Source: Helicobacter cetorum (GTDB taxonomy: Bacteria > Campylobacterota > Campylobacteria > Campylobacterales > BB28). From it: DNA of 64,000 nucleotides. Under the pieces are notes generated by a model that saw nothing but the letters and a program-made list of their open reading frames with translations, searched no databases and was not told the origin of the DNA. Location: assembly GCA_022729755.1 (NCBI GenBank), contig DZAZ01000002.1, positions 1,926-65,925 on the forward strand, written 5' to 3'. Both the position numbers and the translations under genes were made by a program. Below are positions 6,592 through 59,676 of this stretch, piece after piece. Positions within the stretch are counted from its first letter, which is position 1. Each line of letters starts with the position of its first letter.

Positions 6592-6607
6592 GAAGAGTTC
6601 TTCTTAG
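6588..6607. terminator. Bidirectional hairpin between the convergent porin and rimO genes
   Basis: ctaagaaga-gt-tcttcttag is a 9-bp perfect palindrome (8-bp stem with a 4-nt loop once the closing pair opens). It spans both stop codons in a 12-nt intergenic gap. Confidence 0.4.
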
Positions 6608-34477: not shown

Positions 34478-35737
34478 TTAAAGCAAAACAAATTCATTCC
34501 ATTTCATCAAACTATACTCATAAGTATCCATTACAGTGTTCCAAACAGCCACATTTTCAAATCTTTTGATGTATGAACCACCCGTTCTAACTTCACCTTT
34601 TGCAACTGAAATTTTGCCATCAGTTCCCATTAATGGCTCACTTGCAGGTTTTCCATCATACCAATAATCCCATTCAGCACTACTCATAAGTGGTTTTGAC
34701 CTTTGTGGATTTGATATGTAATAACCTTGTCGTGCAATAAAAGCCCCAGCCCAGCCAGATAACCACCAATTCATAAAAGCATAAGCAGCCTCTTTATTTT
34801 CGCCTTTTGAATTTTTTGATAAACACATCACACCATACCAAGCCCGATAACCCTCTTTTGGTGCGGCATAAATACAAGGAATTCCATTGCCATTTAAAGT
34901 TGAAACGGCAGGAGAAAACATACTTTCGATATCAACTTCACCAGATTGCATCAATTCAACCGAATGAGGAACAGAAGACCAAAGCCCCCTAAAATGCCCC
35001 TTTTTCTTATAACTAACTAAAATATCAAACAATTTATCTAATTCAAGCCTACTCATATTTCCCATATCAACAAAATCCATAAGCCCTTTTGCCCTAACTG
35101 CAAGTGCTAAATCAAAAAGCCCAATTGTTGGCTCATTTGCAATTGCGACTTTACCGTGATACTTCTCATCTAAAAGCCAACCCCAACTCTCACTCTCATA
35201 AGGAATTCCTTTTGGAATAATTTTTGAGTTATAACCAAACGAGTCAACATTATGAACATAAGGTAAAAAACTAATATGCTCACTCTGGCTTCCGCCAAGA
35301 GTTCCGTTTTGCTGAATAAATAATATTTTATTAGGTGCATCTCCAAGCCCAACTCTAGCCATACTTGAAATTACACCTTTTTTTGCCAAATCATTTATTT
35401 CATCAAAATATTTTATCTTTTTCACTTCTATTGGAGCGATTGCATTTGCTTGCCAAAGAATTCTAATACTATTTGACCACTGCTCATAGAGGTCAAACGA
35501 AGTTGGGTCAGTTGAAGCTTTTAGGATAATTTGAGCATCTCCACCAGCATAAAATTCAATATTAATTCCTAAATCATTTTGAGCTTTCTTACGAATTGCT
35601 TCTTGCAAAGTTACGTGAGTTCCAAGCACTTTAATAGTTGGTTTTTTATTAATTCCACCTTTTATTATATTTGGAAAAACAATTGTGCTAAGTGCCATAT
35701 TTTTTATAAAATCTCGTCTATTCATCGCAACTATCAA
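34478..35737 (-). CDS. Periplasmic ABC-transporter substrate-binding protein (PotD/extracellular solute-binding family) with a Tat signal
   Basis: Twin-arginine motif NRRDFIK at the N-terminus. 419 aa with an aromatic-rich SBP-like pattern. Confidence 0.6.
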   Translation of the reverse strand: MIVAMNRRDFIKNMALSTIVFPNIIKGGINKKPTIKVLGTHVTLQEAIRKKAQNDLGINIEFYAGGDAQIILKASTDPTSFDLYEQWSNSIRILWQANAIAPIEVKKIKYFDEINDLAKKGVISSMARVGLGDAPNKILFIQQNGTLGGSQSEHISFLPYVHNVDSFGYNSKIIPKGIPYESESWGWLLDEKYHGKVAIANEPTIGLFDLALAVRAKGLMDFVDMGNMSRLELDKLFDILVSYKKKGHFRGLWSSVPHSVELMQSGEVDIESMFSPAVSTLNGNGIPCIYAAPKEGYRAWYGVMCLSKNSKGENKEAAYAFMNWWLSGWAGAFIARQGYYISNPQRSKPLMSSAEWDYWYDGKPASEPLMGTDGKISVAKGEVRTGGSYIKRFENVAVWNTVMDTYEYSLMKWNEFVLL

Positions 35738-35853
35738 CCTAAATTTTTATGTTTTTAATAAATATGTCAATGACTTTTTTATTATAAAAATTACAAATTA
35801 CAAATTTTACAAGATGGTTCTTGAACTTTATCGTAAGGTCAGTTATGTAATTT

Positions 35854-37302
35854 TTACAAAGATGTAACCCCAACTCTTGAAATGTGATAAGCAATATTAT
35901 GTTGAATATCATTAACTAACTCTTTTCTTGCTCTAAATAGCAACTTAAGATTCTCAAGTGTTTTAGGATTTAATCCAAATATATGTCTTAAACTAAGCAA
36001 TAAAATATAATTTTGACTTTCATAATTAAATGAGAATCCACTTTTATAAAAATTATCTAACTTTTTTATACACTGTTTATCAAATGGAACTAAATAACCA
36101 AATATTAACCTTGATTTTTTAAATTTATTATTTGAATAGTCACAATATGGAGTGAATTCTATTAAAATTGGTTTGATGGAATCTAAAGTATCTTGTTTTG
36201 TTTTATTTTTAATTCTTTCATTATATTCATCTTTAGCTTCATTTTGTTGTTTTTCAAGTTCACTTTTATATTTTGAATTATAATCATAAATTTCATCTTC
36301 AAAAATTTTTTTATAATCATCATATCCACAAACATTTTCGTTTAATTTATCACAAATATTTAAATAACTCTCAAAACAAAATATATTTCCTGGATACATT
36401 TTTTTATTACTAGATAATGGAATCTCAAACAAAAGTTTGCTATTAACAATATATGTGTTTTCATTATTTTTAACTTGTAAATCTAAATTTTTTAAAGTGT
36501 TATTTGTAGTTTCATTAGAGTTTGAATCTTCAACACTTTTTTCTATTGTGTCTTGAAGTACCATATTTAAAGCTGTATATAAACCTTTTCTTTTCTCTTC
36601 TTTGTTTGGAGATTGATTAGTTCCGACTATTGACTTAATAGCTCCATTTAATAAATCTCGATTTTTATCTTGATTCTCTATATCTAAAAACATATCAAAT
36701 ACTTTTGCACTTGATTTTTGTATTTGGCTCTCCCACTCTCTTAATAGATTGAAATAGTCTAAATTTTGATTTAAAGAATTTTTTATATCGTTAATTAAAT
36801 AATTGATAGATTTATTGCAAAAAATATTAAAATGGTGTTGATAATCAGCTAAAGTTAATTCTTTTTTATTTATACACCATTTCATTTGTTCAAATTTTTT
36901 TATAATGTTAATTTCATTTTTTTTATAATCATTTTTATCTAAAGTAACTATTGGATAAAATTTATATTTTCTCTCTTTTAATTTATCAATTAAAACATTT
37001 CTCAGTTCATTATGTTTTGACCATATTATTAATATAAATGCTCCATTATCCTCAGATAAATTTCTTGTTATTGATGAGTATATAGGAGAAATCGTACTTT
37101 TGTTAGAACTACTAATTTTATCATCTAATGTTAAATCAGCAAAAATATACCTAACATTGGTGAATTTATTTTTCTTTTTACTCGTTTTAAAGTTAATGTA
37201 AATACTTTGAATACCAATATCATCTAATGCTTCTCTTAAATTTTGTATTTCTTCAGGTTTATCATCAAAAATTAAAACTTTTGTATTATTTACACTATTC
37301 AC
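35854..37302 (-). CDS. Receiver (REC)-like domain protein with an uncharacterised ~350-aa C-terminal region; third gene of the dcm operon
   Basis: The N-terminus reads KVLIFDD (D13-D14)...YIFADLTL (D56)...LIIWS (S95)...K, which follows the CheY-like acidic pocket, phospho-acceptor, Ser/Thr and Lys order. The rest has no motif I recognise. The start overlaps the upstream stop (ATGA at 37299-37302). Confidence 0.45.
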   Translation of the reverse strand: MNSVNNTKVLIFDDKPEEIQNLREALDDIGIQSIYINFKTSKKKNKFTNVRYIFADLTLDDKISSSNKSTISPIYSSITRNLSEDNGAFILIIWSKHNELRNVLIDKLKERKYKFYPIVTLDKNDYKKNEINIIKKFEQMKWCINKKELTLADYQHHFNIFCNKSINYLINDIKNSLNQNLDYFNLLREWESQIQKSSAKVFDMFLDIENQDKNRDLLNGAIKSIVGTNQSPNKEEKRKGLYTALNMVLQDTIEKSVEDSNSNETTNNTLKNLDLQVKNNENTYIVNSKLLFEIPLSSNKKMYPGNIFCFESYLNICDKLNENVCGYDDYKKIFEDEIYDYNSKYKSELEKQQNEAKDEYNERIKNKTKQDTLDSIKPILIEFTPYCDYSNNKFKKSRLIFGYLVPFDKQCIKKLDNFYKSGFSFNYESQNYILLLSLRHIFGLNPKTLENLKLLFRARKELVNDIQHNIAYHISRVGVTSL

Positions 37303-39476
37303 TTTAATTCTCCTTTTTTAAATTCTAAAGCTATTGTCGCACCGTCAATAAAATCTTCTTCTAAATTCAAGTTTTTTATTTTATATTCTTTATTAGTAAT
37401 AATTTTTAAAGCACCTAAATTTTGCTTCATTATTTCATTAGAGAAGTACAAACCAAGACCTTTTCCAAATTCATTTTTTGTAGTTTTAAATGGTAATTTT
37501 GCAATATCTTCTGATATGGAAAATCCTAATCCATTGTCAGCTATTATTAATTCTATTGAATTTTCTTTTTCAAAAACATCTATTAAAATTTTTCTATCTT
37601 TAATCATCTTTTTATAATCTAGCCAATAAATTGAATTATCAAACAAATTCATTAAAACTTGATTAGTCAATTTAGGAAAACAATTAATATAAAATTTTTT
37701 ATCATTTGTTTTATCAATTAATTTTATTTTATGGTCTTCAAATCTTGCTTCAAAATATATCATACACATTTCTATTAACTCATTAACTAATGTATTTTTT
37801 TGTTTATCATTTTCTAAAAATTTTGCAACTCCTTCAATTATAGTTGATAATGAAATAGCTATTTTTTCTATATCATCAAAATTTTTACTTTTAATAGTTT
37901 TGTTTAAAGAGTGAACTATTTTTTCAATTTCGTGTATTACTAAACTATATGCAAGTCCTGCACCTGAACTTTTCAATACAATATCTTTCATACTATTATA
38001 ATTTTCTTCTACTTTTTCAATAAGATGGATAACTTCATCTCTCTTTTTTTCATCAGGAATATATTTTGTAAGCTTTTCCTTACTCTCTTCTATAATTGCT
38101 AATGTATCTCTATCACTATCTTGTTCTTTTGCATATTGTGTTCTAAATTTATCTTTATCTTCATTTTTTAAAAAATTTACTTTATTTATGATATTAATTA
38201 CTATATCTCTAAAGTTATAATAAATTTTATCTTCAATAAATCCTTCACGATTTGTCTTTTCAACTAATCCACTGCTGTTTTTCCCATCTAAAAATACAGA
38301 TGATATAATATTTCTATTTCCTATCTTTGAAGTTGGAGCGTTGATTCTACTTGCATCCATTCCAAGCCAATCATTGCCTTCCTCTCCATAATCATAAATT
38401 CTCATTCCATCTCTATATACTCTTACACCACCATTTTCTTTAACAAAACTTTTCAAACCACTTCTATCAGATATGTTACTTAAATCTAATGTAGTTTTAT
38501 CAAAATCAAATATGTAACCTTTTATATCTATCTCTTTAATACCATCAAATGGTATATCTTCAAATTTATCTCTATTTTTTTCTTGTTTCTCTTTTTCTAT
38601 CTCTCTTCTAATAAAGGGATTTTTTGCTATATATTCATCAACTTCTGTAACTTCTCTAGCTTCTGCTCTTTCCATATACCTATATGGTTGAAATTTATAT
38701 TTAAAGTTTGTAACTTTACTTATTTTATTTCCATTCTCATCTTCAACTTCACTTGCCTTACATTCAAAATACCATAAAGCATATCTTTTTAAAGTCTCTA
38801 ATGATAATAATCCCTCTTTCCAATCTTCTAAATTTGTCTCTATCTCTATATTAAAATTATCTCTTGTTTCAAATGGAGAAGTTAAAGCAAAAATAGAGCG
38901 ATATAACTCTCTAAAGTCTCGTTTACTCCACTCTTTTCTTAAATTTGTAACTCTAATATATGTACCTTTCTCTTCACCAATAAAGAAAGAGGCTTTTCTC
39001 TCTTTTAGAGTAATTAGTTTATCTGATAAATACTCATCACCACTAAATTCACTCCAATCAATGCTTAAAACTACCTCTTTTGAGTTGGCTTTTTTTGTAA
39101 TTAACTCTATCTTATTTCCAAGTTTATGTACACCAAATCTACCAATTCCCTTTTCGCCGATTGGTCTTCTATTACAATCACTTATAAAGTTTTCACTATT
39201 TTTTTCCTCTTTATTATTAGTTCCAGGTTCCATCCAAATATTATTGATAATATCTATATCCATTCCAAAACCATCATCAATAATAATTATTTCTCCATTA
39301 GTTAAGTTATCAATATCATTCATTATAACTTTTACATTTCTTGCACAAGCATCATAAGAGTTTTTGATAATTTCTGAAAGTGCAATTTTTTCATTTCTAA
39401 TAAGTTGGTCACCAAGTTGTAAAAGCAATCTTGCTTTTGGTTTAAATGGTGTGGTAACTTCTTTGTACTCTAACAT
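37299..39476 (-). CDS. Dual Bergerat-fold ATPase: N-terminal MORC/Hsp90-like GHKL module plus C-terminal histidine-kinase core (DHp + CA)
   Basis: N-terminal motifs are ALSEIIKNSYDA (E35, N39, D42), IIIIDDGFGM (D68-G-x-G71) and GEKGIGRFG (~107-115). C-terminal motifs are the H-box VIHEIEKIVHSL (His515, codon 37932-37934), N-box LMNLFDNSIYW, G1 ADNGLGF and G2 GKGLGL. The start overlaps the dcm stop. Confidence 0.65.
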   Translation of the reverse strand: MLEYKEVTTPFKPKARLLLQLGDQLIRNEKIALSEIIKNSYDACARNVKVIMNDIDNLTNGEIIIIDDGFGMDIDIINNIWMEPGTNNKEEKNSENFISDCNRRPIGEKGIGRFGVHKLGNKIELITKKANSKEVVLSIDWSEFSGDEYLSDKLITLKERKASFFIGEEKGTYIRVTNLRKEWSKRDFRELYRSIFALTSPFETRDNFNIEIETNLEDWKEGLLSLETLKRYALWYFECKASEVEDENGNKISKVTNFKYKFQPYRYMERAEAREVTEVDEYIAKNPFIRREIEKEKQEKNRDKFEDIPFDGIKEIDIKGYIFDFDKTTLDLSNISDRSGLKSFVKENGGVRVYRDGMRIYDYGEEGNDWLGMDASRINAPTSKIGNRNIISSVFLDGKNSSGLVEKTNREGFIEDKIYYNFRDIVINIINKVNFLKNEDKDKFRTQYAKEQDSDRDTLAIIEESKEKLTKYIPDEKKRDEVIHLIEKVEENYNSMKDIVLKSSGAGLAYSLVIHEIEKIVHSLNKTIKSKNFDDIEKIAISLSTIIEGVAKFLENDKQKNTLVNELIEMCMIYFEARFEDHKIKLIDKTNDKKFYINCFPKLTNQVLMNLFDNSIYWLDYKKMIKDRKILIDVFEKENSIELIIADNGLGFSISEDIAKLPFKTTKNEFGKGLGLYFSNEIMKQNLGALKIITNKEYKIKNLNLEEDFIDGATIALEFKKGELK

Positions 39477-40708
39477 AACATTTCCTTTATCTTCTCCCCT
39501 ATTTTTTCAGCCATAAGAGGAGGTACAGCATTTCCTATTTGTTTAAATATAAAAGTTCTAGGTCCTTCAAAATAGAAGTCATCAGGAAAAGATTGAACTC
39601 TTGAAGCCTCTCTAATTGAGAGTGAGCGGAGTTGATTAATGTCAGGATGAATGTAGTAGTGTCCATCCATTGCAATGTGTGCTAACATCGTATGAGTTGC
39701 CTCTAAATCAGCTTTTACAACATTAAAACGATTTACAAAAGTTTCTATATTTTTATGCTTTCTTAATCTTTCTGGTAACTCATCATATCTTAATCTCTTT
39801 TTTTTTCTATTCCATAACTCTATCGCTATTTCATAAATTTTTCTATCATTATCATTGTGCGGTCTAGTTTCGTGTTGAGTTAAAATATTAAAATCTTTTT
39901 CTCTAATTTTACTAAAGATTAAATACTCATTTGAATTTTTTTTATATCTATTTTTACCCTCTATTTTACTGCCTGGTTCAACTTCTGGTAAATCATTTAG
40001 TATTTTTTCTACTTTTGTATCTTTTGGTAAATTAACTTTTTCAAAAGTTGGATAACTTAATTTTAACTCTTTTTTCCAACCAATAATAATAACTCTCTTT
40101 CTATTTTGTAACACTCCAAAATCAAAAGAGTTTAAAATTTTAAACTCAAATTCATATCCAACTTCTCTTATCTCTTTTTGTAAATCTTCAAAATATTTTC
40201 CATTTGAAGCACTCAAAAGTCCTGGTACATTTTCAAATACAAACATTTTAGGTTTAAAATCTCTTAAAAATTTTACATAGTGTTTATATAAAGTATTTCG
40301 CTCATCATTAACAACTCTATCTTTCATTCTAGCTCTACCAATTACAGAGTAAGCTTGACAAGGAGGACCACCTATGATTACATCTACTTTTTTACTTATC
40401 TCTTTTAAATTTTTATCTATTTTATTTTTTATCTCTCCATAATTACTATTTGATATAAATTCATTAATAACTAAATCTTTATTACTAAATACATTGTTTA
40501 AAAACTCTTCTCTATCTATCTTTTTTTCTAAGTAATTGTGATATGTTTTTAATTTTTTTTGTTTTTTTAATTCCCAGTAAGCTGTTCTTGTTGAGAGTGT
40601 GTCACAAGCATATTTATCTGCTTCTATGTGTCCAATAAAAGTAGCTCCATTTCGCCAAAAGCCTTCACTTAGTCCTCCAGCACCTGAAAAAAGGTCTAAA
40701 ACAACCAT
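39470..40708 (-). CDS. dcm: DNA (cytosine-5)-methyltransferase
   Basis: Motif I DLFSGAGGLSEGF, motif IV GGPPCQAYS, motif VI ENVPGL, motif VIII QNRKRVIIIG and motif X QIGNAVPP. Confidence 0.9.
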   Translation of the reverse strand: MVVLDLFSGAGGLSEGFWRNGATFIGHIEADKYACDTLSTRTAYWELKKQKKLKTYHNYLEKKIDREEFLNNVFSNKDLVINEFISNSNYGEIKNKIDKNLKEISKKVDVIIGGPPCQAYSVIGRARMKDRVVNDERNTLYKHYVKFLRDFKPKMFVFENVPGLLSASNGKYFEDLQKEIREVGYEFEFKILNSFDFGVLQNRKRVIIIGWKKELKLSYPTFEKVNLPKDTKVEKILNDLPEVEPGSKIEGKNRYKKNSNEYLIFSKIREKDFNILTQHETRPHNDNDRKIYEIAIELWNRKKKRLRYDELPERLRKHKNIETFVNRFNVVKADLEATHTMLAHIAMDGHYYIHPDINQLRSLSIREASRVQSFPDDFYFEGPRTFIFKQIGNAVPPLMAEKIGEKIKEMLC

Positions 40709-40871
40709 TTTTTGCTCCTAAAATGTCAAGTTCATATCTATAATTAGAAAAATTATTTGAACTTCCACTGAAAGTTTTAATATTAATTTCAAAAATTTTA
40801 TTACCTTTATTGTACCATATTTTCATAGCTTCCATCGAAATTTTCTTTTACTGAAAGTGATAAAATTTTTA

Positions 40872-40887
40872 TGGAATGTTTTTTGCT
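40872..40887 (+). promoter_or_regulatory. Sigma54 (RpoN)-type promoter upstream of fliK-flgD-flgE-like
   Basis: TGGAAT-GTTTT-TTGCT has the exact -24 GG / -12 GC spacing of TGGCAC-N5-TTGCW. It lies 35 nt upstream of the fliK ATG. Confidence 0.55.
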
Positions 40888-40920
40888 TTTTAGAAATTAA
40901 ACTTTCTAAAAGGTCATATT

Positions 40921-42162
40921 ATGACAAATGTTTTAAATTTAAACCCTCAAAATTCAGAAGTTGAAAAAGTCCCATCTAAAGGCAAGATTGGTAAAAATGA
41001 AAAGGATGAGCCTCAATTTAGTTTTTTATCGATTATGCAACTTCAATTAGATAAGTTAAATCTCAATGAAAATAGCGAAAATACGGATTTAACTAAAGAA
41101 AAAAGTAAAAAAAGTGTAAATTTAACTAATTTAAATAATTTATCATTGCTTGGTAAAAATAAATTAAATGTTGAGTTAAAAAATGTAGAAAATTTAAACG
41201 AGTTAAAAAGTGCAAAAAATTTGCAAGATTTGGTTAAAGTGGCAAATCAAAAAGGTTTGAATATTGAAAAAATTGATATTCAAAGTGTAAAAGATACTAA
41301 CTCTAAAAGCATCGATACTACGACAACTACCACTATTACAACTGCTAATAATAAAATAGTTAATACTAAAAAAGTTGAAACAAGAATATTGGAAAAAGAG
41401 TTAAATTTAGAGTTAGATAATGAAAAGTTGACAATTTCACCTAAAATAAAAGAGGAAAAAATTGCTGAAAATAAAAATTTCATTGCAAACTCTAATTCTA
41501 TTGAAAAAGAGTCTCTAAAACAAAATATCGTAAATAACGGTTTTAGTTTAGAGTCTCTTTTACAAAAAGATGAAAATGTTGTGAATAAAAAACTCAAAAA
41601 AGATAAAGTTGTAACAGAGACTTTAGAGCAAAATAAATTAGAAAAGTTAGAAAATATTGAGAGTAAAAAAGATATTAGTCTTGATTTAAAACTTGATACA
41701 AACGGCAAAAGTTTAGCTGAAGTTGAAGTTAAAAATAAAATGGTGGAAGCAAAAAGTACGATAAATTCATTTGCAAATACCCTAAAAGAGCAAGTTGAAA
41801 ATTACAAACCTCCTATTATGAAACTTTCACTTAGCTTAAATCCAAAAGAGCTTGGGAATGTAGATGTAACTCTTATTTCAAGAGGAAACTCTATTCAAGT
41901 CAATTTAGCTTCAAATTCACAAGCGATGCAACTTTTTGCACAAAATGCGGCTGAATTTAAAAATGCACTTGCAAGTATTGGTTTTGAAAATGTGCAAATG
42001 AATTTTAATAGTAATGAACAAAGTGGGCAAAACAATCAAAACAACCAAAACGGGCAAAATCAGAGGGCTTTTAAATACTATAGTGACAATGATTTAAACT
42101 TTTCAGCACAAGAGTTAGAGAGTTTAAGTAGCATTGATTTAACAATACCATATTATGCTTAA
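40921..42162 (+). CDS. fliK: Flagellar hook-length control protein FliK
   Basis: Low-complexity, charged N-terminal two-thirds. The C-terminal Flg_hook domain reads LSLNPKELGNVDVTLISRGNSIQVNLASNSQAMQLF. It lies directly upstream of flgD. Confidence 0.65.
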   Translation: MTNVLNLNPQNSEVEKVPSKGKIGKNEKDEPQFSFLSIMQLQLDKLNLNENSENTDLTKEKSKKSVNLTNLNNLSLLGKNKLNVELKNVENLNELKSAKNLQDLVKVANQKGLNIEKIDIQSVKDTNSKSIDTTTTTTITTANNKIVNTKKVETRILEKELNLELDNEKLTISPKIKEEKIAENKNFIANSNSIEKESLKQNIVNNGFSLESLLQKDENVVNKKLKKDKVVTETLEQNKLEKLENIESKKDISLDLKLDTNGKSLAEVEVKNKMVEAKSTINSFANTLKEQVENYKPPIMKLSLSLNPKELGNVDVTLISRGNSIQVNLASNSQAMQLFAQNAAEFKNALASIGFENVQMNFNSNEQSGQNNQNNQNGQNQRAFKYYSDNDLNFSAQELESLSSIDLTIPYYA

Positions 42163-42172
42163 GGAGTAAAAA

Positions 42173-42826
42173 ATGGCAGTATCATCGGTAAATAATTCTT
42201 CTAGTGCAAAAGTTTATGAAAATCCAAATGCAAAACTGGGTTCACAAGAGTTTTTAAAACTATTTTTAGTGGAACTTCAATATCAAGACCCGACTGAACC
42301 TATGGATAATGAAAAGATTTTAACCCAAACATCGCAATTATCGACACTTGAAAATAACGATAAATTAGCAACTTCACTTCAAAGTGTTGTTAATAAATTG
42401 GAAGCAAATTCACAATATTCGATGATTTCAGCGATTGGAAAAACGGCAAATACGGGAGTAAATACTATAACTCTTGAAAATGGAAATAGTGCTAATTTTG
42501 GAATGTTGTTTAAAAATCCAATAGAAAGCGGAACTATAAAAATCACAGATTCTGATGGAAAAATTGTAAAAACAATTGATTTGGCTAATTATAAAGGCAT
42601 AGCAGGAAATATAAATTTATCTTGGGATGGAACTGATTTTAATGGTCAAAAAATGCCTGATGGTGAATACAAAATAGTGGCTGATTATGTAGATTCAGCT
42701 GGAGGATTAAATAGCATTAAACTGGGCGAATCTTTGGTTGAATCGGTTAAATTTGATGGTGGAAAAACTTATTTAAAAATTGGTTCAAACTATGTTTTAG
42801 CAAGTGATGTTAAGGAGATTTACTAA
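42173..42826 (+). CDS. flgD: Flagellar hook capping/assembly protein FlgD
   Basis: FLKLFLVELQYQDPTEPMD is the FlgD N-terminal signature. The C-terminus has a FLgD Ig/tudor-like domain (WDGTDFNGQKMPDGEY). Confidence 0.85.
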   Translation: MAVSSVNNSSSAKVYENPNAKLGSQEFLKLFLVELQYQDPTEPMDNEKILTQTSQLSTLENNDKLATSLQSVVNKLEANSQYSMISAIGKTANTGVNTITLENGNSANFGMLFKNPIESGTIKITDSDGKIVKTIDLANYKGIAGNINLSWDGTDFNGQKMPDGEYKIVADYVDSAGGLNSIKLGESLVESVKFDGGKTYLKIGSNYVLASDVKEIY

Positions 42827-44526
42827 TGATACAATCATTTTATAATGGATACTCTGGAGTTAAAACTCAACAATTTGGGGTTGATGCTTGGTCAAATAAT
42901 ATCGCAAATGTCAATACTAACGGATATCGTGCAAATATTCCAAGGTTTCAAAATGTTTTTACTGAAGCACTTGACCACGTAAATGCAAGTAATCCTTCAC
43001 CAATAGCAAATACTCAAGGCTTTGGAGTTACCGTTGGCTCAAATGCAATTGATACTTCAGTTGGTACATTAATAAATGCCGATGATAGCGATTTTAATAT
43101 GGCTTTAGGAAATTCTAATGGTTGGTTTGTTGTTGGTTCAGCTAATGAAAAATTTTATACAAGAAATGGAGCTTTTAATAGAGATGCAAGTGGAAATATA
43201 GTTAATAGCGATGGACAATTTTTATATGGAGTTAATTTAAATAAAATTGCAAATAACACAATTACACCAACTACAGACAGAAATAGTGATATAAGTGCCT
43301 TAAATTCAGCTACAACTATTAGTGCACCACTCGTAATTTCTGATGATTTGAGATACCCTGCAAAAGATACAACTATTGTAAATTCAAGTATAAATTTAAA
43401 TATCAGAGATTCGCTAAAATCAGCCGATACAACTTCACTTTTAGGTGCTAATTTAAATACTATTTATGGTGATGATGGAGTTAGTATTAAAACAGCTAAT
43501 GAACAAATAACTATAAATCAAATTGACCCTCAAAGTGGTGCTAAAACTCCGAGTGTAATCGATTTGACAAATATAAATACTCTTCAAGATTTAGTAGATA
43601 ATTCAAATGGTTTAATAACTTTAAATGGTACAAAGTTAAAATTTACAAATCCTAATGAAACTGACATAGAAATAGATTTTGAAAATAGTTCACAAAATAC
43701 ACTAAAAGCCTTAGGTATCACTTCAAGTAAAACTATTGGAAGTGGCAGTAGTTTGGATAGTAACGAATTAAAACTTTCACAAACAACTTTTTATGAAAAA
43801 ATTTATGATGTAAGTGGAAATGAATACAATTTAAAAAGTGAATACACTCTAAGCAATAGAACAAATGAAAATCAAACTTGGAGTGTAAAAAACGGAATTT
43901 ACGATGCTTCTGGAACTTTAGTTTCTGATGAAATAAAAGGCTTTATACAATTTGAAGGAAGTAGTGCAACTAATGTACCAAAACTTTTTGCTCAAGATGG
44001 TACAACTGAAGTACCATCTTTTAGTGTTAGTAATTTTAACGGCAAAACTATAACTTACAATCCAAAAGAGTTTACAGATATCTATGGAGTGAAACATAAT
44101 TCAACTAATATTTATTCAAATAGTGAACAACTTCAAACAGATAATAATGGAGTTAAAGATGGATATTTTAGTGATGCTTATATCGATAAAGATGGAATTA
44201 TAACTTTGAACTTTGATAATGGTAAAGGTGAAATTTTTGGAAGAGTTGGAGTTGCAAATTTTATAAATCCACAAGGTTTAGAAAAAATGGGTGGAAATTT
44301 ATTTAAAGAAACAACAAATAGTGGTGCTGAAAGTTTAAATTGGGATACAACAACAGGAAAATTAAAATCAACTAGTGTTGTTCAAGGTAAACTTGAAACA
44401 TCAAATGTAAGAATGGAAACAGCACTAACTCAATTGATGATAATGCAAAGAGCATATTCAGCTTCAACAAAATCAATTACAACGGCTGATGATATGGTAA
44501 AAGAAGCAATTGGACTTAAAAGATAG
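42826..44526 (+). CDS. Flagellar hook protein FlgE paralog (FlgE2-like)
   Basis: Flg_bb_rod N-terminus (NNIANVNTNGYR) and conserved C-terminus (LETSNVRMETALTQLMIMQRAYSASTKSITTADDM). Confidence 0.7.
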   Translation: MIQSFYNGYSGVKTQQFGVDAWSNNIANVNTNGYRANIPRFQNVFTEALDHVNASNPSPIANTQGFGVTVGSNAIDTSVGTLINADDSDFNMALGNSNGWFVVGSANEKFYTRNGAFNRDASGNIVNSDGQFLYGVNLNKIANNTITPTTDRNSDISALNSATTISAPLVISDDLRYPAKDTTIVNSSINLNIRDSLKSADTTSLLGANLNTIYGDDGVSIKTANEQITINQIDPQSGAKTPSVIDLTNINTLQDLVDNSNGLITLNGTKLKFTNPNETDIEIDFENSSQNTLKALGITSSKTIGSGSSLDSNELKLSQTTFYEKIYDVSGNEYNLKSEYTLSNRTNENQTWSVKNGIYDASGTLVSDEIKGFIQFEGSSATNVPKLFAQDGTTEVPSFSVSNFNGKTITYNPKEFTDIYGVKHNSTNIYSNSEQLQTDNNGVKDGYFSDAYIDKDGIITLNFDNGKGEIFGRVGVANFINPQGLEKMGGNLFKETTNSGAESLNWDTTTGKLKSTSVVQGKLETSNVRMETALTQLMIMQRAYSASTKSITTADDMVKEAIGLKR

Positions 44527-51956: not shown

Positions 51957-52580
51957 TTATATTTTTTGTAATAATTCAGAATGAGGAATTAATTTTATAT
52001 CTTCTATTAAACTATTTAACTCTTGTTTCAAGTCATTCATGTATTTTTGTAAAGCTTCCAAAACTTTTATATCAGATTTTTTTATACAAACAGAAATAAT
52101 AATATTTTTAGTTTTTTTATAAAAAAAGCATTTATTAACTATTTTAAATTTATTGGGCATATCATTATATATACAAAGAGTGCCTAATATTTTATCTTTT
52201 AGCTCTTGTTTAATAATTTTTTTAATAAATTCTCTAATATTTGTATCGTCAATATTGGATTTTAAATTTTTTTGAATAGATTTATTAATAGCTTCATTAA
52301 TTTTTTCATTCTCATTATTAGAAAATTGTTTGAAATATTCTTTAATAAGTTTTTCACTTCCATATTTTAAATAATTATCTTCTTGAGCTTTTAAATTAGA
52401 AAATTCTATAAAATATACTTTTCTATTTTTAAAATAAAAATAATCACAAGATGGAATTCCATTCAAATTCATATTCAATTTTATACCATTTTTACCATCA
52501 ATTTTTAAAGCTTTTTTATTATATTTGGGTGAGTTTTCACATTCAGGGTCTATTTTTTCTAAATGTTCATATAGAAGCAT
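51957..52580 (-). CDS. Hypothetical 207-aa protein, translationally coupled partner of the upstream ATPase
   Basis: Its start overlaps the ATPase stop by 1 nt. I recognise no motif. CDYFYF...[10 protein letters not shown] only loosely resembles a nuclease core. Confidence 0.35.
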
Positions 52581-53965
52581 TAAACATCTTTCATATATAG
52601 TTCAAAAAATGGCTCACTTAACTCCTCTAAAACTATATCTATTTTTTTACTTAATTCTTTTTTATGAAATTCATCACTATAAGGCATCATATTCAAAGAG
52701 ATAAATTTTGCTGCCTCTTTATCTTTTTTACTAAGTATTTCTAAAAATTTTATTATCTCTATACTATGAGTTGCAATTACTATATTTGCACCACTTTTAG
52801 CAATATCATATAACACCTCTATCATTTTTATTTGCCACTCTGGATGTAAATGAACTTCAGGTTCATCTAAAATCAAAAATGAACCTTTTTTTATAATATT
52901 ATTTTCCAGTAATAAACCTATAAGCCCTATATTTGATATTCCCATTGCAGTTAATGAAATTGGAATTACTTTTCCACCATCATTTACATAATTTATTTCT
53001 CCACTCTTTGAAAATTCTACTTTTCCACTTATAATTTTTTCTATTTTTTTATAAACTTCAATGAAATCAGGTTTATCAATGTACCTTTGTTTCATTAATT
53101 CAAAAAGCTTTTCTACATAAAAAGGATAACCTTTTAAATATTTATCTTCACTTTTTTTAGCAAAGATAGATAAAAAAGTTGTTTTATTACACTCTTCTAA
53201 TGCCTCTTTTATTTTAATATAAATAGGAGAATCTAAATAAATTATACTTGAGAGTTTTTGTATTTCTTCTATTCCATTCGATTTTAAATTAAATTGTATT
53301 TCTTCTCCAGTAATTACTATATCACCTATTGTATTCAATTTAAAACTATTATTTTCATTGTTTTTTGAATTGAAATTATGTAAATCTTTTAATTTAGTAA
53401 TTTGAAAATTTTTTAAAAGTTTATCTCTTAAGTTCTTACCTATTTCAAAGCTAATTAAATCTCTTGGGCTATGAAGATTTTTTTGTAATGAAGATAAATT
53501 TTCTTTAATCTCATTTAAATTATTTTCTAGTTTTTTGTATTTTATAATTTTATTACTTTGTTTTATTTTATAATTGTCTAATATTTGTTCAGCTTCTAAA
53601 ATTATATTTTGTTCAGCTTCTTGCCAAGAAAATTGTTTTATTAAACTTCTTTCTTTAGAAATTGTAAGTAATTTATCAATTTTTTCTAAATGTTGGAGAA
53701 AAGTATCTATAAAAATTTTATCATCTTTTGATTGTGTAGTTAAAATAGTTTGAAGAGAATTAAAATTGTCTTGTAATTTAATTAACTGACTATTTATTAC
53801 TAGTGATAAATAGTCAATATTTAATACACTTAAAAAACTATACAAACTTTTTGTAGCAAAACTTTTACCACTATCATTTTTACCAGCTATGATAGTCAAT
53901 GGTTTTATGTCAAGATTTGCTCTATCTATTTTTCCAAAATTTTTTATTTCAAAATTAAATTCCAT
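52580..53965 (-). CDS. SMC/ABC-like ATPase (AAA_15/AAA_21 type) with a long helical insertion
   Basis: Walker A AGKNDSGKSF, then ~300 aa of helical/coiled-coil-like insertion. These are followed by the signature-like SLTAMGISNIG, Walker B FLILDEPEVHLHP and H-loop IATHS. Confidence 0.65.
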   Translation of the reverse strand: MEFNFEIKNFGKIDRANLDIKPLTIIAGKNDSGKSFATKSLYSFLSVLNIDYLSLVINSQLIKLQDNFNSLQTILTTQSKDDKIFIDTFLQHLEKIDKLLTISKERSLIKQFSWQEAEQNIILEAEQILDNYKIKQSNKIIKYKKLENNLNEIKENLSSLQKNLHSPRDLISFEIGKNLRDKLLKNFQITKLKDLHNFNSKNNENNSFKLNTIGDIVITGEEIQFNLKSNGIEEIQKLSSIIYLDSPIYIKIKEALEECNKTTFLSIFAKKSEDKYLKGYPFYVEKLFELMKQRYIDKPDFIEVYKKIEKIISGKVEFSKSGEINYVNDGGKVIPISLTAMGISNIGLIGLLLENNIIKKGSFLILDEPEVHLHPEWQIKMIEVLYDIAKSGANIVIATHSIEIIKFLEILSKKDKEAAKFISLNMMPYSDEFHKKELSKKIDIVLEELSEPFFELYMKDV

Positions 53966-54096
53966 TCTTATTCTTTTGTTTATTTTTATTATTAGGTTTT
54001 ATTATATAGTTTCTAGTGTTAGAGTATGGTAAAAGTTACGATATACTCATTTATCTTAACTTTTACTAAAAAAGCAAAATCTATTCCGTCTTTTTT

Positions 54097-55604: not shown

Positions 55605-56318
55605 ATGATTGTAATTCCTGCAAGACTTAAATCTAGTAGGTTTGAGCATAAGGTTTTAGTTGATATCAATGGTTTGCCAATGGTCATAAAAACTGCAAAG
55701 CAAGTTGAAAGTTTAGATGAAGTTGTAATTGCAACTGATAGCGAAGAAGTTATGCAAATTGCAAAAAAGTATAATTTTAAGGCAATTATGACAAGCCAAA
55801 AGCATAATTCTGGTACAGATAGAGTAAATGAAGCTTGTGAGAAATTAAATTTATCCGAAGATGAAATAGTTATAAATGTACAAGCTGATGAGCCTTTTAT
55901 TGAGCTTCAAGTTATAAAAAGTGTGATTGAAAAGTTAAAAGAGTTAAAAGATAGTGTTATGATGGTGAGTTGTTATAAAACAATTAATTCAGAGTTAGCA
56001 GATGACTCAAATCATGTAAAAGTTATAATTGATGAGTTTTCAAATGCGATTTATTTTTCAAGAAGTAAAATTCCATACAATCGAGACCACGGCGAAATTG
56101 AGTATTTTGGGCATTTAGGGATTTATGGTTTTACAAAGAGAAGTTTAAATGAGTTTTGTAATTTAAAAGTAGCTCCACTTGAAAACATTGAAAAATTGGA
56201 ACAATTAAGAGCAATTTATCATAACAAAAAAATAGCGATGATAAAAGTCGAAAGTAAAAGTTTCGGAATTGATACTGAAGCTGATTTAAAAAGAGCTTTA
56301 GAAGTGTTTAATTTATAA
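55605..56318 (+). CDS. kdsB: 3-deoxy-manno-octulosonate cytidylyltransferase
   Basis: MIVIPARLKSSRF, HNSGTDR and NVQADEP motifs. Confidence 0.85.
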   Translation: MIVIPARLKSSRFEHKVLVDINGLPMVIKTAKQVESLDEVVIATDSEEVMQIAKKYNFKAIMTSQKHNSGTDRVNEACEKLNLSEDEIVINVQADEPFIELQVIKSVIEKLKELKDSVMMVSCYKTINSELADDSNHVKVIIDEFSNAIYFSRSKIPYNRDHGEIEYFGHLGIYGFTKRSLNEFCNLKVAPLENIEKLEQLRAIYHNKKIAMIKVESKSFGIDTEADLKRALEVFNL

Positions 56319-56330
56319 TTTTTTGGTACC

Positions 56331-56357
56331 AAAGAGGGGACTTGAACTCAATTTGAA
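56331..56357 (-). other. Orphan tRNA 3'-end fragment (T-loop, 3' T-stem, acceptor 3' strand and CCA); putative att-site remnant
   Basis: The reverse complement reads GTTCAAGTCCCCTCTTTGGTACCA. This gives a canonical T-loop TTCAAGT, stem CCCCT, a 7-nt acceptor strand, a discriminator A and CCA. The 5' T-stem partner and the rest of the tRNA are absent. Confidence 0.5.
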
Positions 56358-56400
56358 TGCTTTATAAAGTCCCATAGTTAGCATATTTTTTCCCATATAG

Positions 56401-56453
56401 TCGGTCATTTATTAGTCATTATTGGTCACTATTAGTTATGACTAGTAGTCATT
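56401..56453. repeat. Phased ~10-bp direct repeats (ATTRGTCAYT-like), iteron or arm-site-like
   Basis: tcggtcattt / attagtcatt / attggtcact / attagttatg are four tandem decamers, followed by actagtagtcatt. The related cccatagttagcat and cccatatagtcggtcat lie just upstream (56371-56408). Confidence 0.5.
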
Positions 56454-56696
56454 TTTTTATCGATTTGACTACCGTTTTTTTTATTTGCATAATAAAATTT
56501 TTATAGTTTTTGGTGATAGTAGTTTTGATTGTTTTATAACTTCTTCTATTTGGTCGCAAATAACTTTTTCTAATATTCCTTTATAATCTATTTTTTTTAT
56601 ATTTATTTCATTTGATTGAATTTCTTGTATATTTTTTAAATCTATTACAGTTGTTTTTTTGAAAAATTTACTTTTATTTTTTTCTATAATTATGAA

Positions 56697-57074
56697 TTAA
56701 CATTTTTTTAAATCACCATCAAAACTAATTTTTCCATAATCCTCCAATTTACTTTTTGCACATATAAGAGCATCTACAAAATCTATATTTTTATTTTCTA
56801 AAATATTTAATGTCTCATATAAAACTATTTTATTGGAATTTACCACACCATCAAGCGATAATATAGTCTTTAAATCTAAAATAACTTCATCTTTAGGCAA
56901 TTTATAAAACTTTGTAAGCACAAAAAAAGCTTCCATCAAAACAGTATCTAAGATTTCTACCTCTATTTTTAAAGCTTCTATATCTTTAAAATATTTTTCA
57001 CTCTCTTTTAAAAATTTCTCATTATCTCCAACTAAAAATCTAATAATTACATTTGTATCAAGTAGATAAATCAT
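56697..57074 (-). CDS. vapC: PIN-domain toxin VapC
   Basis: MIYLLDTNVIIRFL is the first acidic PIN motif, with later conserved acidic residues (E..., FVDAL). Length 125 aa. It overlaps the upstream antitoxin gene. Confidence 0.8.
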   Translation of the reverse strand: MIYLLDTNVIIRFLVGDNEKFLKESEKYFKDIEALKIEVEILDTVLMEAFFVLTKFYKLPKDEVILDLKTILSLDGVVNSNKIVLYETLNILENKNIDFVDALICAKSKLEDYGKISFDGDLKKC

Positions 57075-57312
57075 ATTTTTCTCTCATTGCAATTAAAGTA
57101 GCCTCTTCTTTTATCTCTTTGAAATTTAAATTATTTTTTTCTACTCTATCTTTATATTTTCCAGCTAATTTATCTACTTTGTTACTTCTTTTGACAGGAT
57201 AGACAAAAGCTAATGTCTCTTTTTTTCTTTTATCTATAATTTTGACAATTTGATTTAAATTATTAAAAATAGATATCTTTTTTTGAATTTCACCAATTCC
57301 GATAGTTAGCAT
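57058..57312 (-). CDS. Cognate antitoxin (VapB-type) of the PIN toxin
   Basis: 84-aa ORF overlapping the vapC start by 17 nt, which is the typical type II TA arrangement. Confidence 0.55.
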   Translation of the reverse strand: MLTIGIGEIQKKISIFNNLNQIVKIIDKRKKETLAFVYPVKRSNKVDKLAGKYKDRVEKNNLNFKEIKEEATLIAMREKYDLST

Positions 57313-57815
57313 AACAAAGCCTTTTATATAAATAAATTCTATTTTATATAAAAATCACTCTTTTGTCAATAATCAATCTGCCAACTCTTCTATCTTTTTA
57401 TAAACATCATCTCTAAGTTTTTTTATCTCTTCAATAAATTTTTGATACTTATCATCAATCATATTATCCAATATATCGCTACTAGTATCTAAATCAATAT
57501 TTAACTCTCTCAAAAAGTTTTTTTGTCTCTCTGCTCTATTCTCTACTAAAAGTATTTTTAAAACACCTAGTTTTCAGGCTTTTAAGAAAAAATTTTCATA
57601 CTATGAATATCTTTAAGTTTCAGATTTAAACCTTAAAAAAATTAATTAAAATACAAAATGGTATTAAAAAGAATAAAGCCCATAAAATATGGACTTTTTA
57701 CTTAAAGCAGTTTAATTTAACGAAAAAGAAAAAAATTATTAGTTAAAAATGTGGGTGGTAATAGAAAGTGTATAGAAATTTTGTTATTAAAGTAAAATAG
57801 TTATTATTTAATAAC

Positions 57816-57919
57816 TAGACTTCTTGCAAAACTCATTTAAATGATATAGATAGTCTAACAAGTTTAAGTGTATTTTATTTGTAAACCACTTTAATTTTTT
57901 TAGTTTTGCAAGAAGTCTA
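57816..57919. repeat. Perfect 18-bp inverted repeat with a 68-nt spacer
   Basis: tagacttcttgcaaaact (57816-57833) and agttttgcaagaagtcta (57902-57919) are exact reverse complements. They are nested inside a 12-bp inverted pair, aaagcccataaa (57675-57686) and tttatgggcttt (57972-57983). Confidence 0.6.
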
Positions 57920-58073
57920 CTATTTATTTTTTTATAAAGATGATTTTTTTCTTGTGTTTTTAAAATGCCTATTTATGGGCTTTGTGAGAAGTGGAAAAAG
58001 AGAGGTTAAAGTGTTTGAAAAAGTATACTTTTTTGAACGCTTTAAACTTTGATTTTTATTATTTTCATAATTA

Positions 58074-58877
58074 TTATGCACAATTAAAAATAATTAATTC
58101 AAGATAAACTTTTTTGTTTTTATCTTCTATATTATTAAAAATATATGAGATAGATGTTTTAGAGGTTTCTTTTACAAATAAAGAAAAATTAGGATGAGTA
58201 GATATAGCATTTTTTGCATTTTCTAGTAATTTAGAAAAATCTTTATTTTCTTTATTGAAAATTATTAAAGCAGTATGTTCATCTCTCCAATTTACATATC
58301 GTTCTAAAAGTTGGTCAATAGCTTTTAATAATTCTTTTTCTCCATACCAAATTTTACATTCTCCAATAAAAACATTTATACCATTGTTATCTTGTATTAG
58401 AATATCTGTTTTTCCTATTTTATTAAAAGTTTCACCAGTTGCAGAATGATTTTTTGATATTGAATTTAAATGTGGTAAGAAAAAATCTCTAAACCCTTCT
58501 TCATCAAATTTTGAATGAAGAGATTTTAGTTTTTCAAGTTCAAGTCCAAATTTATTTATTTTTTCTATAATCTGAGAGTATGCTTGATTACTAATAGTAG
58601 ATAATTCTTCTACTTCAAAATATGGGTCTATTGGCTCAGATTTAAAAAAATTATCAAGCTGTACAATTATTTCTTTTTCAACTTCATTTGGTTCATAAAA
58701 TTTAGAAGGATAAACAGTAATATCTGTTCGTTTATTGTTTGTAATATTTACCGTTCTAGTTGTTTGAAGATTATTTAATAATTTTTGTACTATTTCAAGT
58801 TGTTTATTATTTTTTAACTCAACTTTTAAATAAGGATTACCATGAGCTTCTCTGTGTATGATTGTGTAATTTAACAT
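58074..58877 (-). CDS. Stand-alone PD-(D/E)xK nuclease-fold protein with an unknown N-terminal domain
   Basis: The C-terminal half carries GKTDILIQDNNGINVFIGECKIW, a D-x(n)-E-x-K core. The N-terminal ~140 aa have no motif I recognise. Confidence 0.45.
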   Translation of the reverse strand: MLNYTIIHREAHGNPYLKVELKNNKQLEIVQKLLNNLQTTRTVNITNNKRTDITVYPSKFYEPNEVEKEIIVQLDNFFKSEPIDPYFEVEELSTISNQAYSQIIEKINKFGLELEKLKSLHSKFDEEGFRDFFLPHLNSISKNHSATGETFNKIGKTDILIQDNNGINVFIGECKIWYGEKELLKAIDQLLERYVNWRDEHTALIIFNKENKDFSKLLENAKNAISTHPNFSLFVKETSKTSISYIFNNIEDKNKKVYLELIIFNCA

Positions 58878-59090
58878 TTATTTTACCTCATTTTTTAAAT
58901 TGTTTGATATATTTTAGGGCATAAACCTATAAATCTTTTATTTGCAAGTGCTTAAAAATATATTAATTGTATTTTAATAAAAATAATATTAATTTTTATT
59001 AAATAATAACTTTCAGTTTCATTTTTGTTATTTTAAACAATTACAAATACATTAATTTGAGTAAATTAATGCAATTTCATTAACTTTAGA

Positions 59091-59366
59091 CTAATACTTT
59101 TTAAAAAGTTGTGAATGTGTACCAATCCTAAGTAAGATAATCTCATTATCTTCATTTATAAGATAAATAACTAACATATCTCCACCAATATGAAATTCTC
59201 TACAATCCAAATATTCACCATTTAATAAATGGTCTCTTGCTTCAAGTGGTAATTTACCATCAATTCTTAAACAATTTACATAATAGACAAACTTTTCAAA
59301 TTGAGTATCACTTAATTTGGCTTTATTAAACTCTTTGATAAAAACTTTATGCCTATTAATTTTCAT
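59091..59366 (-). CDS. yafQ: YafQ/RelE-family mRNA interferase toxin
   Basis: 91 aa. ...DCREFHIGGDMLVIYLINEDNEIILLRIGTHSQLF matches the YafQ C-terminal signature (GTHSELF). Confidence 0.75.
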   Translation of the reverse strand: MKINRHKVFIKEFNKAKLSDTQFEKFVYYVNCLRIDGKLPLEARDHLLNGEYLDCREFHIGGDMLVIYLINEDNEIILLRIGTHSQLFKKY

Positions 59367-59676
59367 TTTTATGTTTTAACTCATCTAATGAAAACTCCTC
59401 AACATTTTTACCTTCTCTAGCCTCCTCAATAATAGTTTTAGTTTTATCATTTGGAATTTTTACATCAAATGGTATCCCTTTGTGTAAATTAACTTGATGT
59501 AAGAACATATTAAAAGCATCTCCCATTGAAATACCAAGTTCTTTAAATATCTTTTTTGCTCTCTCTTTTGCCTCTTTATCCAATTTAATACTTGTAGTTT
59601 CTTTCATAATTGAAATAGACATAAAAAATCTCCCATAATACTTTTGTGTTATTTTATCGTATTTTTTCATTAGCAC
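59356..59676 (-). CDS. dinJ: DinJ/RelB-family antitoxin
   Basis: TSIKLDKEAKERAKKIFKELGISMGDAFNMFLHQV is a ribbon-helix-helix DinJ pattern. It overlaps the toxin start. The true start is probably an internal Met (MSISIM or MKETT). Confidence 0.75.
   Translation of the reverse strand: MLMKKYDKITQKYYGRFFMSISIMKETTSIKLDKEAKERAKKIFKELGISMGDAFNMFLHQVNLHKGIPFDVKIPNDKTKTIIEEAREGKNVEEFSLDELKHKNEN

Follow-up and report, generated by a model that had tools for sequence, protein, structure and literature searches.

An Overlapping Operon for a C5 DNA Methylase, a Sensor Kinase-Like Protein With Two ATPase Modules and a Receiver-Like Partner in Helicobacter cetorum

A stretch of 64,000 nucleotides (nt) of Helicobacter cetorum DNA (GenBank assembly GCA_022729755.1, contig DZAZ01000002.1, positions 1,926 to 65,925 of the forward strand), here called the window, contains three mutually overlapping open reading frames (ORFs) on its minus strand, at positions 35854-40708. 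In operon order they encode a C5 DNA cytosine methyltransferase (MTase), a soluble, cytoplasmic sensor kinase-like protein of 725 amino acids (aa) with two different, apparently competent Bergerat-fold ATPase modules predicted in one chain, and a response-regulator-like (RR-like) protein that begins with a cryptic receiver. The catalytic residues of both ATPase modules are conserved throughout a widely distributed family, in which the same gene order recurs. We consider it probable, with some reserve, that the three genes are the minimal core of a restriction-modification (R-M)-associated two-component-like system, that is, a methylation-linked defence module with a MORC/Hsp90-type kinase input. 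An earlier note on this DNA, made from the letters of the sequence, had described the two ATPase modules and proposed that a GHKL domain serves as the input of a histidine kinase. Its account of the architecture was right, but it read the gene in isolation, when in fact the gene is the middle member of an MTase/kinase-like/receiver-like operon; it is this context that gives the 725-aa protein its likely meaning.

Two Bergerat-Fold ATPase Modules in One Protein

The ORF of the kinase-like gene is intact, and Pfam assigns two ATP-binding domains to its product, both above their curated cutoffs: HATPase_c_3 at residues 31-148 (E = 1.2e-16; 61.5 bits, cutoff 25) and HATPase_c at residues 605-692 (E = 4.1e-11; 43.7 bits, cutoff 26.4). 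The earlier note had allowed that profile searches might find a single true ATP-binding domain, which is not what was observed; a HisKA-type domain, the third that it had named for a Pfam search, was not detected. Both HATPase domains are present in all 55 aligned kinase-like sequences, the window protein included. For the C-terminal half, NCBIfam aligns residues 509-693 with the sensor kinases PgtB, AtoS, and ZraS, and the CA region has a sequence match in the PDB to ZraS (9jfj, E = 5.6e-5). For the N-terminal half, residues 19-247 match the N-terminus of the NCBIfam model NF050001 (BbrUII/HgiDII; E = 5.8e-24).

Conservation was assessed over the window protein and 76 homologues at 27-70% identity, with one genome taken per species (n = 77). 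Ten residues of the N-terminal module (E35, N39, D42, D67, G69, G71, K109, G110, G112, and R113) and six of the C-terminal half (H515, N614, D647, G651, G673, and G675) are identical in every sequence. Around the phospho-acceptor His515, E516 is found in 72/77 sequences and K519 in 71/77, while in the transducer region R410 is invariant and K407 is retained in 75/77. The motifs on which the earlier note had based its claim are thus in place. E35/N39/D42 and GEKGIGRFG (107-115) were read correctly, as were, in the kinase half, VIHEIE with His515, NLFDNS (610-615), DNGLG (647-651), and GKGLGL (671-676); the His515 codon is indeed CAC at 37932-37934. The DxGxG motif is also real, but it had been placed at 68-71, and its true span is 67-71 (D67-D68-G69-F70-G71). 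The region that follows the N-terminal ATP-binding domain contains two further invariant motifs, GGVRVYRDGxRIxDYG and K407-x-N409-R410-E411-G412-F413. We take K407 to be a candidate ATP-contacting lysine, by analogy with MutL and MORC.

Structure prediction agrees with this division. In the AlphaFold2 model of the 725-aa protein (mean predicted local distance difference test score, pLDDT, 80.2), Foldseek matched the last ~250 residues to the DHp-CA portions of the kinases ZraS, HK853, KinB, and YycG, with template modelling (TM) scores of ~0.53-0.59 on the target. The first ~450-520 residues were matched to the ATPase modules of Hsp90, MORC2 (9cdh), and SMCHD1 (6mw7); here TM scores were low (0.25-0.36), and the alignments span 450-520 columns, past the ATP-binding domain and into the transducer region. 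Between the two halves the model places helices at residues 417-449, 458-472, and 476-502, followed by a hairpin (507-528 and 533-553) with His515 on its first helix. Hence, a MORC/Hsp90-type module sits where the sensor domain of a histidine kinase normally stands, and the chain as a whole appears, from its sequence and its model, to hold two distinct ATPases of the Bergerat fold.

The hairpin resembles a DHp domain that Pfam does not recognize. The HisKA-type models PF00512, PF07568, PF07730, PF07536, PF06580, and PF19191 gave no match to the window protein at E<=1 or to its isolated region at E<=10, nor to any of the 55 aligned kinase-like sequences at E<=0.01. The residue four positions past the phospho-acceptor histidine is a nearly invariant Lys, not Thr or Asn. 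In HisKA kinases this position has been linked to phosphatase activity (10.64898/2026.02.27.708494), and a Lys there would fit a one-way trigger rather than a homeostatic sensor.

The absence of a HisKA-type domain makes the protein an "incomplete" kinase by Pfam criteria, and in the NCBI annotation of a near-identical contig the gene is split into ORFs of 34 and 674 aa. Both facts could be taken to mean that one ATP-binding module is a degenerate scaffold, or that the fusion is an artefact of assembly or annotation. Against such an explanation, none of the ATP-binding and catalytic residues of either module varies among the 77 sequences, the most distant of which share 27% identity, and the same holds for the phospho-accepting histidine. 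Thousands of clusters contain the architecture in full length, and the split in the near-identical contig goes back to one base, a G-to-T change by which codon 35 becomes a stop; the window copy is intact. The conservation has largely refuted this explanation already, and we regard it as extremely improbable.

The contig in question (locus L085; GCA_973903765.1, CDAAWT010000161.1) is a public metagenome-assembled genome (MAG) contig that is 99.96% identical to window positions 35000-43302, with three base differences. The difference at 39374 converts codon 35 of the kinase-like gene, which encodes the catalytic Glu of the N-terminal ATPase, from GAA to TAA. A second, at 36576, replaces T243 of the RR-like protein with Pro within a predicted helix, and the third, a synonymous change in FliK, is at 41760. 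These changes hint at an inactivated signalling pair in the sibling lineage, but three single-nucleotide differences carry little statistical weight.

The Receiver-Like Partner

The 482-aa protein encoded by the next gene had no usable match in Pfam, NCBIfam, PADLOC, or PHROGs, and Pfam searches of 47 diverse homologues returned only two stray matches; PF00072 and PF19192 matched neither the protein nor any of the 47. A receiver signature is nevertheless evident in the alignment of these homologues. D13 is conserved in 45 of them, D14 (as D, N, or E) in 46, D56 in all 47, S/T95 in 44, and K123 in all 47. In the AlphaFold2 model (pLDDT 80.0) the N-terminal domain folds as (beta/alpha)5, and Foldseek matched it to flavodoxin and CheY-like receivers. 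The top rows for the whole model are fusion constructs of G protein-coupled receptors with flavodoxin, which we rejected as artefacts of the combination of helices with a flavodoxin fold; it is the receiver domain that dominates the matches. When the family profile was compared with the PDB, six of seven weak matches were receiver domains whose DD pocket and phospho-accepting Asp lined up with those of the family. Furthermore, a relative encoded on a Campylobacter jejuni plasmid has a receiver that Pfam does detect (PF00072, E = 2.5e-6), placed before the same C-terminal domain (E = 5e-12). On the alignment and the model, the cognate receiver protein of the 725-aa kinase thus appears to be encoded by the overlapping next gene, which makes a phosphorelay plausible.

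Behind the receiver the model shows a helical middle region (residues 130-291) and then a C-terminal alpha/beta output domain. Across the 47 homologues this part of the protein has its own set of conserved residues: N287, G305, C387, G402, and G478 are invariant, D388 and R476 are each found in 45/47, and R398 in 41/47. The C387-D388 pair is encoded at 36139-36144. Comparison by hhalign gave no relation of the output domain to neighbouring nuclease families.

The C. jejuni plasmid just mentioned (CP132116.1) is conjugative and 55.9 kb long. At positions 2131-6596 (L082) it encodes a related double-GHKL kinase followed by the 340-aa response regulator, and a dcm gene adjoins on the other strand. 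In this record at least, a plasmid of the same phylum therefore carries the module. A tblastn search with the window protein found 41 Campylobacter plasmid records, some of them matching at full length and many only over residues ~338-697.

Operon Linkage and Distribution

The stop codon of the MTase gene and the start of the kinase-like gene share 7 nt (ATGTTAG), and the kinase-like stop and the GTG start of the RR-like gene share 4 nt (GTGA). These overlaps indicate co-translation, with the operon translationally coupled. The first gene product is a clear C5 MTase (Pfam DNA_methylase, E = 2.1e-66; TIGR00675 dcm, E = 2.7e-57). Its top PADLOC match was the DrmMII-type MTase PDLC02649, which prompted consideration of a class 2 DISARM system. 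This candidate was rejected: no other Drm genes are present, the kinase-like and RR-like proteins match no Drm model, and the flanking genes are housekeeping genes.

The earlier note had called the architecture unusual. In fact it is far from rare, and it is not new. At E<=1e-30 an exhaustive profile search found 3,113 representative clusters, of which the top 150 are almost all full-length, and relatives occur in at least 553 species-level genomes (one genome per species scanned); proteins of this kind were moreover published in 2021 (PMC8011034). Seventy-nine loci were fetched, and the 72 that were full-length with enough flanking DNA were used to count adjacent genes. An RR-like gene lies directly downstream in 64 of these 72, and a homologous C5 MTase gene directly upstream in 52, or within 8 kb in 62. 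Where the C5 MTase gene is missing, the same position holds an N6/N4 MTase in four loci, an AIPR gene in two, and an HNH gene in one; replacement by an N6/N4 enzyme is a displacement of the sort known from R-M-type systems. The order MTase, kinase-like, RR-like is kept across Campylobacterota, Bacteroidota, Firmicutes, Planctomycetota, Chloroflexota, the candidate phyla radiation (CPR), and archaea, and hosts also include Actinomycetes, Parcubacteria, Nitrosopumilaceae, and Bathyarchaeota. Given this host range and the number of clusters, the architecture is common and laterally mobile. In the phage collection that was searched, two short unannotated faecal contigs matched, and no evidence was obtained that the module is phage-borne.

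Vsr genes stand alongside the triad in 30/79 loci. This association, together with a functional interaction of MutL with Vsr in E. coli, as reviewed (PMC2292703), could be explained if the system were concerned with DNA repair or with epigenetic housekeeping; in that case the GHKL protein, resembling MutL, would work with a Dcm-type methylase and Vsr repair of T:G mismatches, and the kinase would report DNA damage or methylation status. We consider this very unlikely relative to a methylation-linked defence module.

Some loci depart from the common arrangement. In a Cenarchaeum sp. MAG (L024) two kinase-like/RR-like pairs stand in tandem; one ORF among them, of 923 aa, is matched by the RR-like profile, and within 8 kb no C5 methylase was detected. 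In a distant subgroup (L062-L065, L067, and L069) the RR-like gene after the kinase-like gene is replaced by an ORF of 200-290 aa without a Pfam match, sometimes followed by one of 800-1,120 aa; the smaller ORF may be a different output module.

Reader Heads and DNA as a Possible Signal

In about 11% of the fetched family members the chain is extended at its N-terminus by a "head," and these heads fall into at least nine unrelated types. One of the types is EcoRII-N, a DNA-binding domain, which was found in P0220 and P0290 (56-57 bits, cutoff 25) as well as in Roseivirga sp. (L068:7482-10115) and in a member of the Chitinophagaceae (L073:1692-4277). In the Roseivirga locus a complete operon of C5 MTase, kinase-like, and RR-like genes surrounds the headed kinase; in the Chitinophagaceae locus a C5 methylase gene lies upstream, and the 428-aa ORF downstream is not matched by the RR-like profile. 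EcoRII-N is the domain by which EcoRII reads its Dcm-sensitive site. The heads look like interchangeable "reader heads," and the fusion of EcoRII-N in relatives strengthens the idea of DNA sensing. Taken together with the BbrUII/HgiDII-like N-terminus of the window protein, these heads support DNA as the probable signal.

The nearest relatives of the operon's proteins belong to Sulfurospirillum, Aliarcobacter, and other Campylobacterota. Those closest to the 725-aa protein, from Aliarcobacter and its relatives (P0003-P0007, P0039-P0049, and P0057; ~920-980 aa), are 66-68% identical to it and have an N-terminal extension of 200-250 aa, without a Pfam match, that the window protein lacks. An EcoRII-N-like nature of this extension was considered and set aside, the hhalign result (E = 0.025, probability 1.9%) being a weak hint only.

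Comparison With Described Systems

Proteins that combine HATPase_c_3, a new DHp domain (HEF_HK, PF19191), and HATPase_c were described computationally by Bellieny-Rabelo, Pretorius & Moleleki in 2021 (Genome Biol Evol; PMC8011034). Their partners are adjoining genes with a cryptic receiver (Response_reg_2, PF19192), an RR-like gene being found within three genes in 91.6% of cases; a C5 methylase usually lies upstream of the kinase genes, and Vsr or HNH_2 is often in the vicinity (PMC8011034). The authors proposed that the N-terminal GHKL domain is the sensor and that the family branched from paraMORCs (PMC8011034), so the GHKL-input idea of the earlier note is a published hypothesis for such proteins. 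The window pair shares with this family the domain order, a soluble protein, a DHp His followed by an acidic residue, an adjoining cryptic-receiver gene without other known domains, and a C5 methylase that usually lies upstream. In profile comparisons, the window kinase matches published-type proteins of Acinetobacter and Agrobacterium at E = 1e-68 to 1e-75, and the window partner shares a C-terminal domain with related partners at E = 1e-7 to 5e-12. The two also differ. Partners of the window clade have 410-480 aa, as against ~600 aa as published (~640 aa in the Acinetobacter/Agrobacterium type), and the window clade, unlike the published family, reaches archaea, CPR, and Firmicutes. Even on the Acinetobacter and Agrobacterium proteins PF19191 and PF19192 give only sub-threshold matches, PF19192 weakly matching the Acinetobacter partner. 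On these sequence comparisons, we place the window pair in the same superfamily, as a probable sister clade whose shorter partner escapes the Pfam models.

A further relative is Ambrosia, a five-gene anti-phage system of Pseudomonas aeruginosa (AbrR-AbrA-AbrB-AbrC-AbrD) that has been validated in a preprint (10.1101/2025.09.30.679545). Its genes encode an XRE regulator, an N6 adenine methylase, a "sensor histidine kinase/HSP90-like ATPase," a receiver protein, and an HNH nuclease, and every gene as well as the receiver Asp (D60A) was needed for defence (10.1101/2025.09.30.679545). Compared by description, Ambrosia and the window operon both cluster genes for a DNA methylase, an HATPase kinase, and a receiver protein, and the AbrC-AbrD order corresponds to that of 9/79 related loci in which an HNH_2 endonuclease gene directly follows the RR-like gene. 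The window cluster differs in having a C5 rather than an N6 methylase and no XRE or nuclease gene in or beside it. AbrC moreover reportedly has a helix-turn-helix of the winged type (wHTH), and none was detected in the window partner.

Other systems share parts of the arrangement. The paraMORC families of R-M operons, defined by Iyer, Abhiman & Aravind in 2008, and prokaryotic MORC proteins resemble the window protein in their N-terminal GHKL domain with intact motifs, in the transducer-type domain that is predicted behind it, and in operons with cytosine methylases and Vsr (PMC2292703). ParaMORC1-5, however, have nuclease, TIR, or unknown C-terminal modules, or helicase partners, and none is described with a histidine kinase and a receiver partner (PMC2292703). 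The BbrUII/HgiDII family of type II restriction enzymes resembles the window protein over the N-terminal ~230 residues, and both are paired with a DNA methyltransferase gene, which for BbrUII/HgiDII encodes a C5 methylase. The match to NF050001 covers only profile positions 11-231 of 659 and scores 84.6 bits against a cutoff of 550, the window protein having coiled coil, DHp, and CA regions in place of the remainder. A classical type II R-M system was accordingly rejected as an identification: a methylase is present, but neither the kinase-like nor the RR-like protein has a nuclease domain in Pfam, NCBIfam, PADLOC, or PHROGs, and the BbrUII match is confined to the N-terminus. Detocs shares with the module proposed here the idea of a cytoplasmic histidine kinase that responds to infection by phosphorylating a receiver-effector; it differs in its sensor domain, has a nucleosidase-type effector and a receiver protein acting as a buffer, and is not known to include a methylase. 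A predicted HATPase/REC system is mentioned in the DefensePredictor paper in a figure legend only, which offered nothing usable.

Proposed Mechanism and Alternatives

If the three genes form a methylation-linked defence module, the C5 methylase would mark the cell's own DNA. The GHKL and transducer half of the 725-aa protein would act as an ATP-driven dimerizing clamp on DNA or on a DNA-linked infection signal, guided in some relatives by the added EcoRII-N DNA-reading head, and the conformational change of the clamp would be passed via the coiled coil to the DHp hairpin. The CA domain would then phosphorylate His515, the phosphoryl group would move from His515 to Asp56 of the 482-aa partner, and phosphorylation of Asp56 would turn on the partner's output region (Cys387-Asp388, Arg398, and Arg476). 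We infer the clamping and the phosphotransfer from the conserved residues and the predicted folds.

Several observations weigh against this proposal. The triad contains no recognizable nuclease or other toxic effector. In PADLOC, the kinase-like and RR-like proteins gave nothing beyond weak N-terminal REase_II and MzaB matches. The 725-aa protein has no DNA-reading head of its own, and no DNA-binding motif has been demonstrated in it. The output domain of the partner matches nothing in Pfam or, by profile, among PDB sequences, and the Foldseek viral library added nothing. PF19191 and PF19192 matched none of the 55 aligned kinase-like sequences, window included, and none of the 47 partners, with isolated regions searched at E<=10; a search with a Prevotella-group partner likewise gave no link of the window clade to these models. 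The window clade itself is known here from sequence and predicted structures. In the case of Ambrosia, the authors lean towards the view that its receiver protein acts in transcription, and phage gained no protection from methylation (10.1101/2025.09.30.679545), so the classical self/non-self logic of R-M systems cannot be assumed.

The transcriptional role favoured for AbrC corresponds to a competing explanation, in which the window operon is a conventional two-component system: the phosphorylated partner would bind DNA and switch the methylase or unlinked R-M or defence genes, and would not itself be the effector. The 2021 authors speculated that the pair controls R-M systems (PMC8011034), and in Ambrosia the wHTH of AbrC is accompanied by infection-induced expression of flanking genes (10.1101/2025.09.30.679545). 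The long helical middle of the window partner (130-291) and, in its C-terminal domain, the conserved basic residues R398, R457/R459, and R476 could bind DNA, and a core triad without a nuclease would also suit a regulator. Yet models of the helix-turn-helix (HTH) and wHTH match neither the partner nor any of its 47 homologues, Foldseek found no DNA-binding-domain match, and the invariant Cys-Asp pair seems to suit catalysis or ligand binding better than the reading of DNA. Moreover, unrelated genomes and plasmids have acquired the triad as one self-contained unit, which argues against the regulation of host genes. Because no HTH is detectable and the triad moves self-sufficiently, we hold a purely transcriptional system to be rather unlikely.

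A bolder version of the defence module can also be imagined, a "phosphorelay restriction" in which the MORC-like clamp would read DNA methylation directly and the partner's C-terminal domain, which has the invariant Cys387-Asp388 and several conserved arginines, would be a hitherto unrecognized enzyme or toxin switched by phosphorylation of Asp56. We offer this tentatively and at low confidence. If it is true, immunity would be executed by a receiver-gated effector and not by a conventional restriction nuclease or by transcriptional control.

Genomic Setting

The features of the operon are collected in Table 1. Its flanks are chromosomal housekeeping genes, with FliK, FlgD, and FlgE on one side and a periplasmic ABC-type binding protein and CobQ on the other. 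The G+C content is 0.21 within the three-gene block, as compared with ~0.30-0.33 around it. Given this low value and the ordinary flanking genes, the triad looks like a small inserted island in a low-G+C genome.

Table 1. Coordinates in the window of the three genes and of the domains of the kinase-like and RR-like proteins.
Feature	Position	Strand	Basis
C5 DNA cytosine methyltransferase, 412 aa, operon gene 1	39470..40708	-	Pfam, TIGR00675
725-aa sensor kinase-like protein (GHKL ATPase, transducer, coiled coil/DHp, CA)	37299..39476	-	Pfam, NCBIfam, AlphaFold2, Foldseek
N-terminal Bergerat ATP-binding domain, residues 1-150 (E35, N39, D42, D67xG69xG71, G107-F114; E35 codon 39372-39374)	39027..39476	-	HATPase_c_3
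Beta-rich middle (transducer/S5-like) domain, residues 151-416	38229..39026	-	Foldseek, conservation
Long helices and DHp-like hairpin, residues 417-556, with predicted phospho-acceptor His515	37809..38228	-	Model secondary structure
Kinase CA domain, residues 557-725 (N box N610/D613/N614, G1 D647/G649/G651, G2 G673/G675)	37299..37808	-	HATPase_c, ZraS 9jfj, Foldseek
482-aa RR-like protein, GTG start	35854..37302	-	ORF, family profile
Cryptic receiver (REC) domain, RR-like residues 1-128 (D13, D14, D56, S95, K123; D56 codon 37135-37137)	36919..37302	-	Alignment, model, profile
Helical middle region and C-terminal alpha/beta output domain, RR-like residues 129-482	35854..36918	-	Conservation

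A scan for promoters and terminators of the operon was uninformative in this AT-rich DNA, yielding 39 promoter-like sites where 39.4 were expected and no terminators. Inside the kinase-like gene lies a 98-aa antisense ORF (39061-39357, plus strand), rich in leucine, serine, and isoleucine and of low complexity, which is most likely a spurious ORF of AT-rich DNA. The whole window (1-64000) has no tRNA gene and no Rfam match at the gathering threshold. Further stretches of low G+C (0.21-0.23) occur at 52001-54000 and 56001-60000, and ORFs of at least 150 aa are absent from 56318-58074.

Significance

The 725-aa protein is a member of a large class described before, and a related system, Ambrosia, is experimentally validated. 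What is specific here is modest: a clade missed by the Pfam models that define the class, a minimal three-gene form, and an output domain without a known relative. Since Pfam misses the DHp and receiver domains of this clade, the pair is labelled "ATP-binding protein" and "hypothetical protein," and censuses based on such models undercount the system. A module of this kind would join two ATP-driven switches, a MORC/MutL/Hsp90 clamp and a histidine kinase, to DNA methylation in thousands of bacterial and archaeal lineages. The window version is the simplest form available, with three genes and without an extra regulator or nuclease, and this simplicity recommends it for studying whether a phosphorelay can take its input from a GHKL clamp, and what role the output domain plays.

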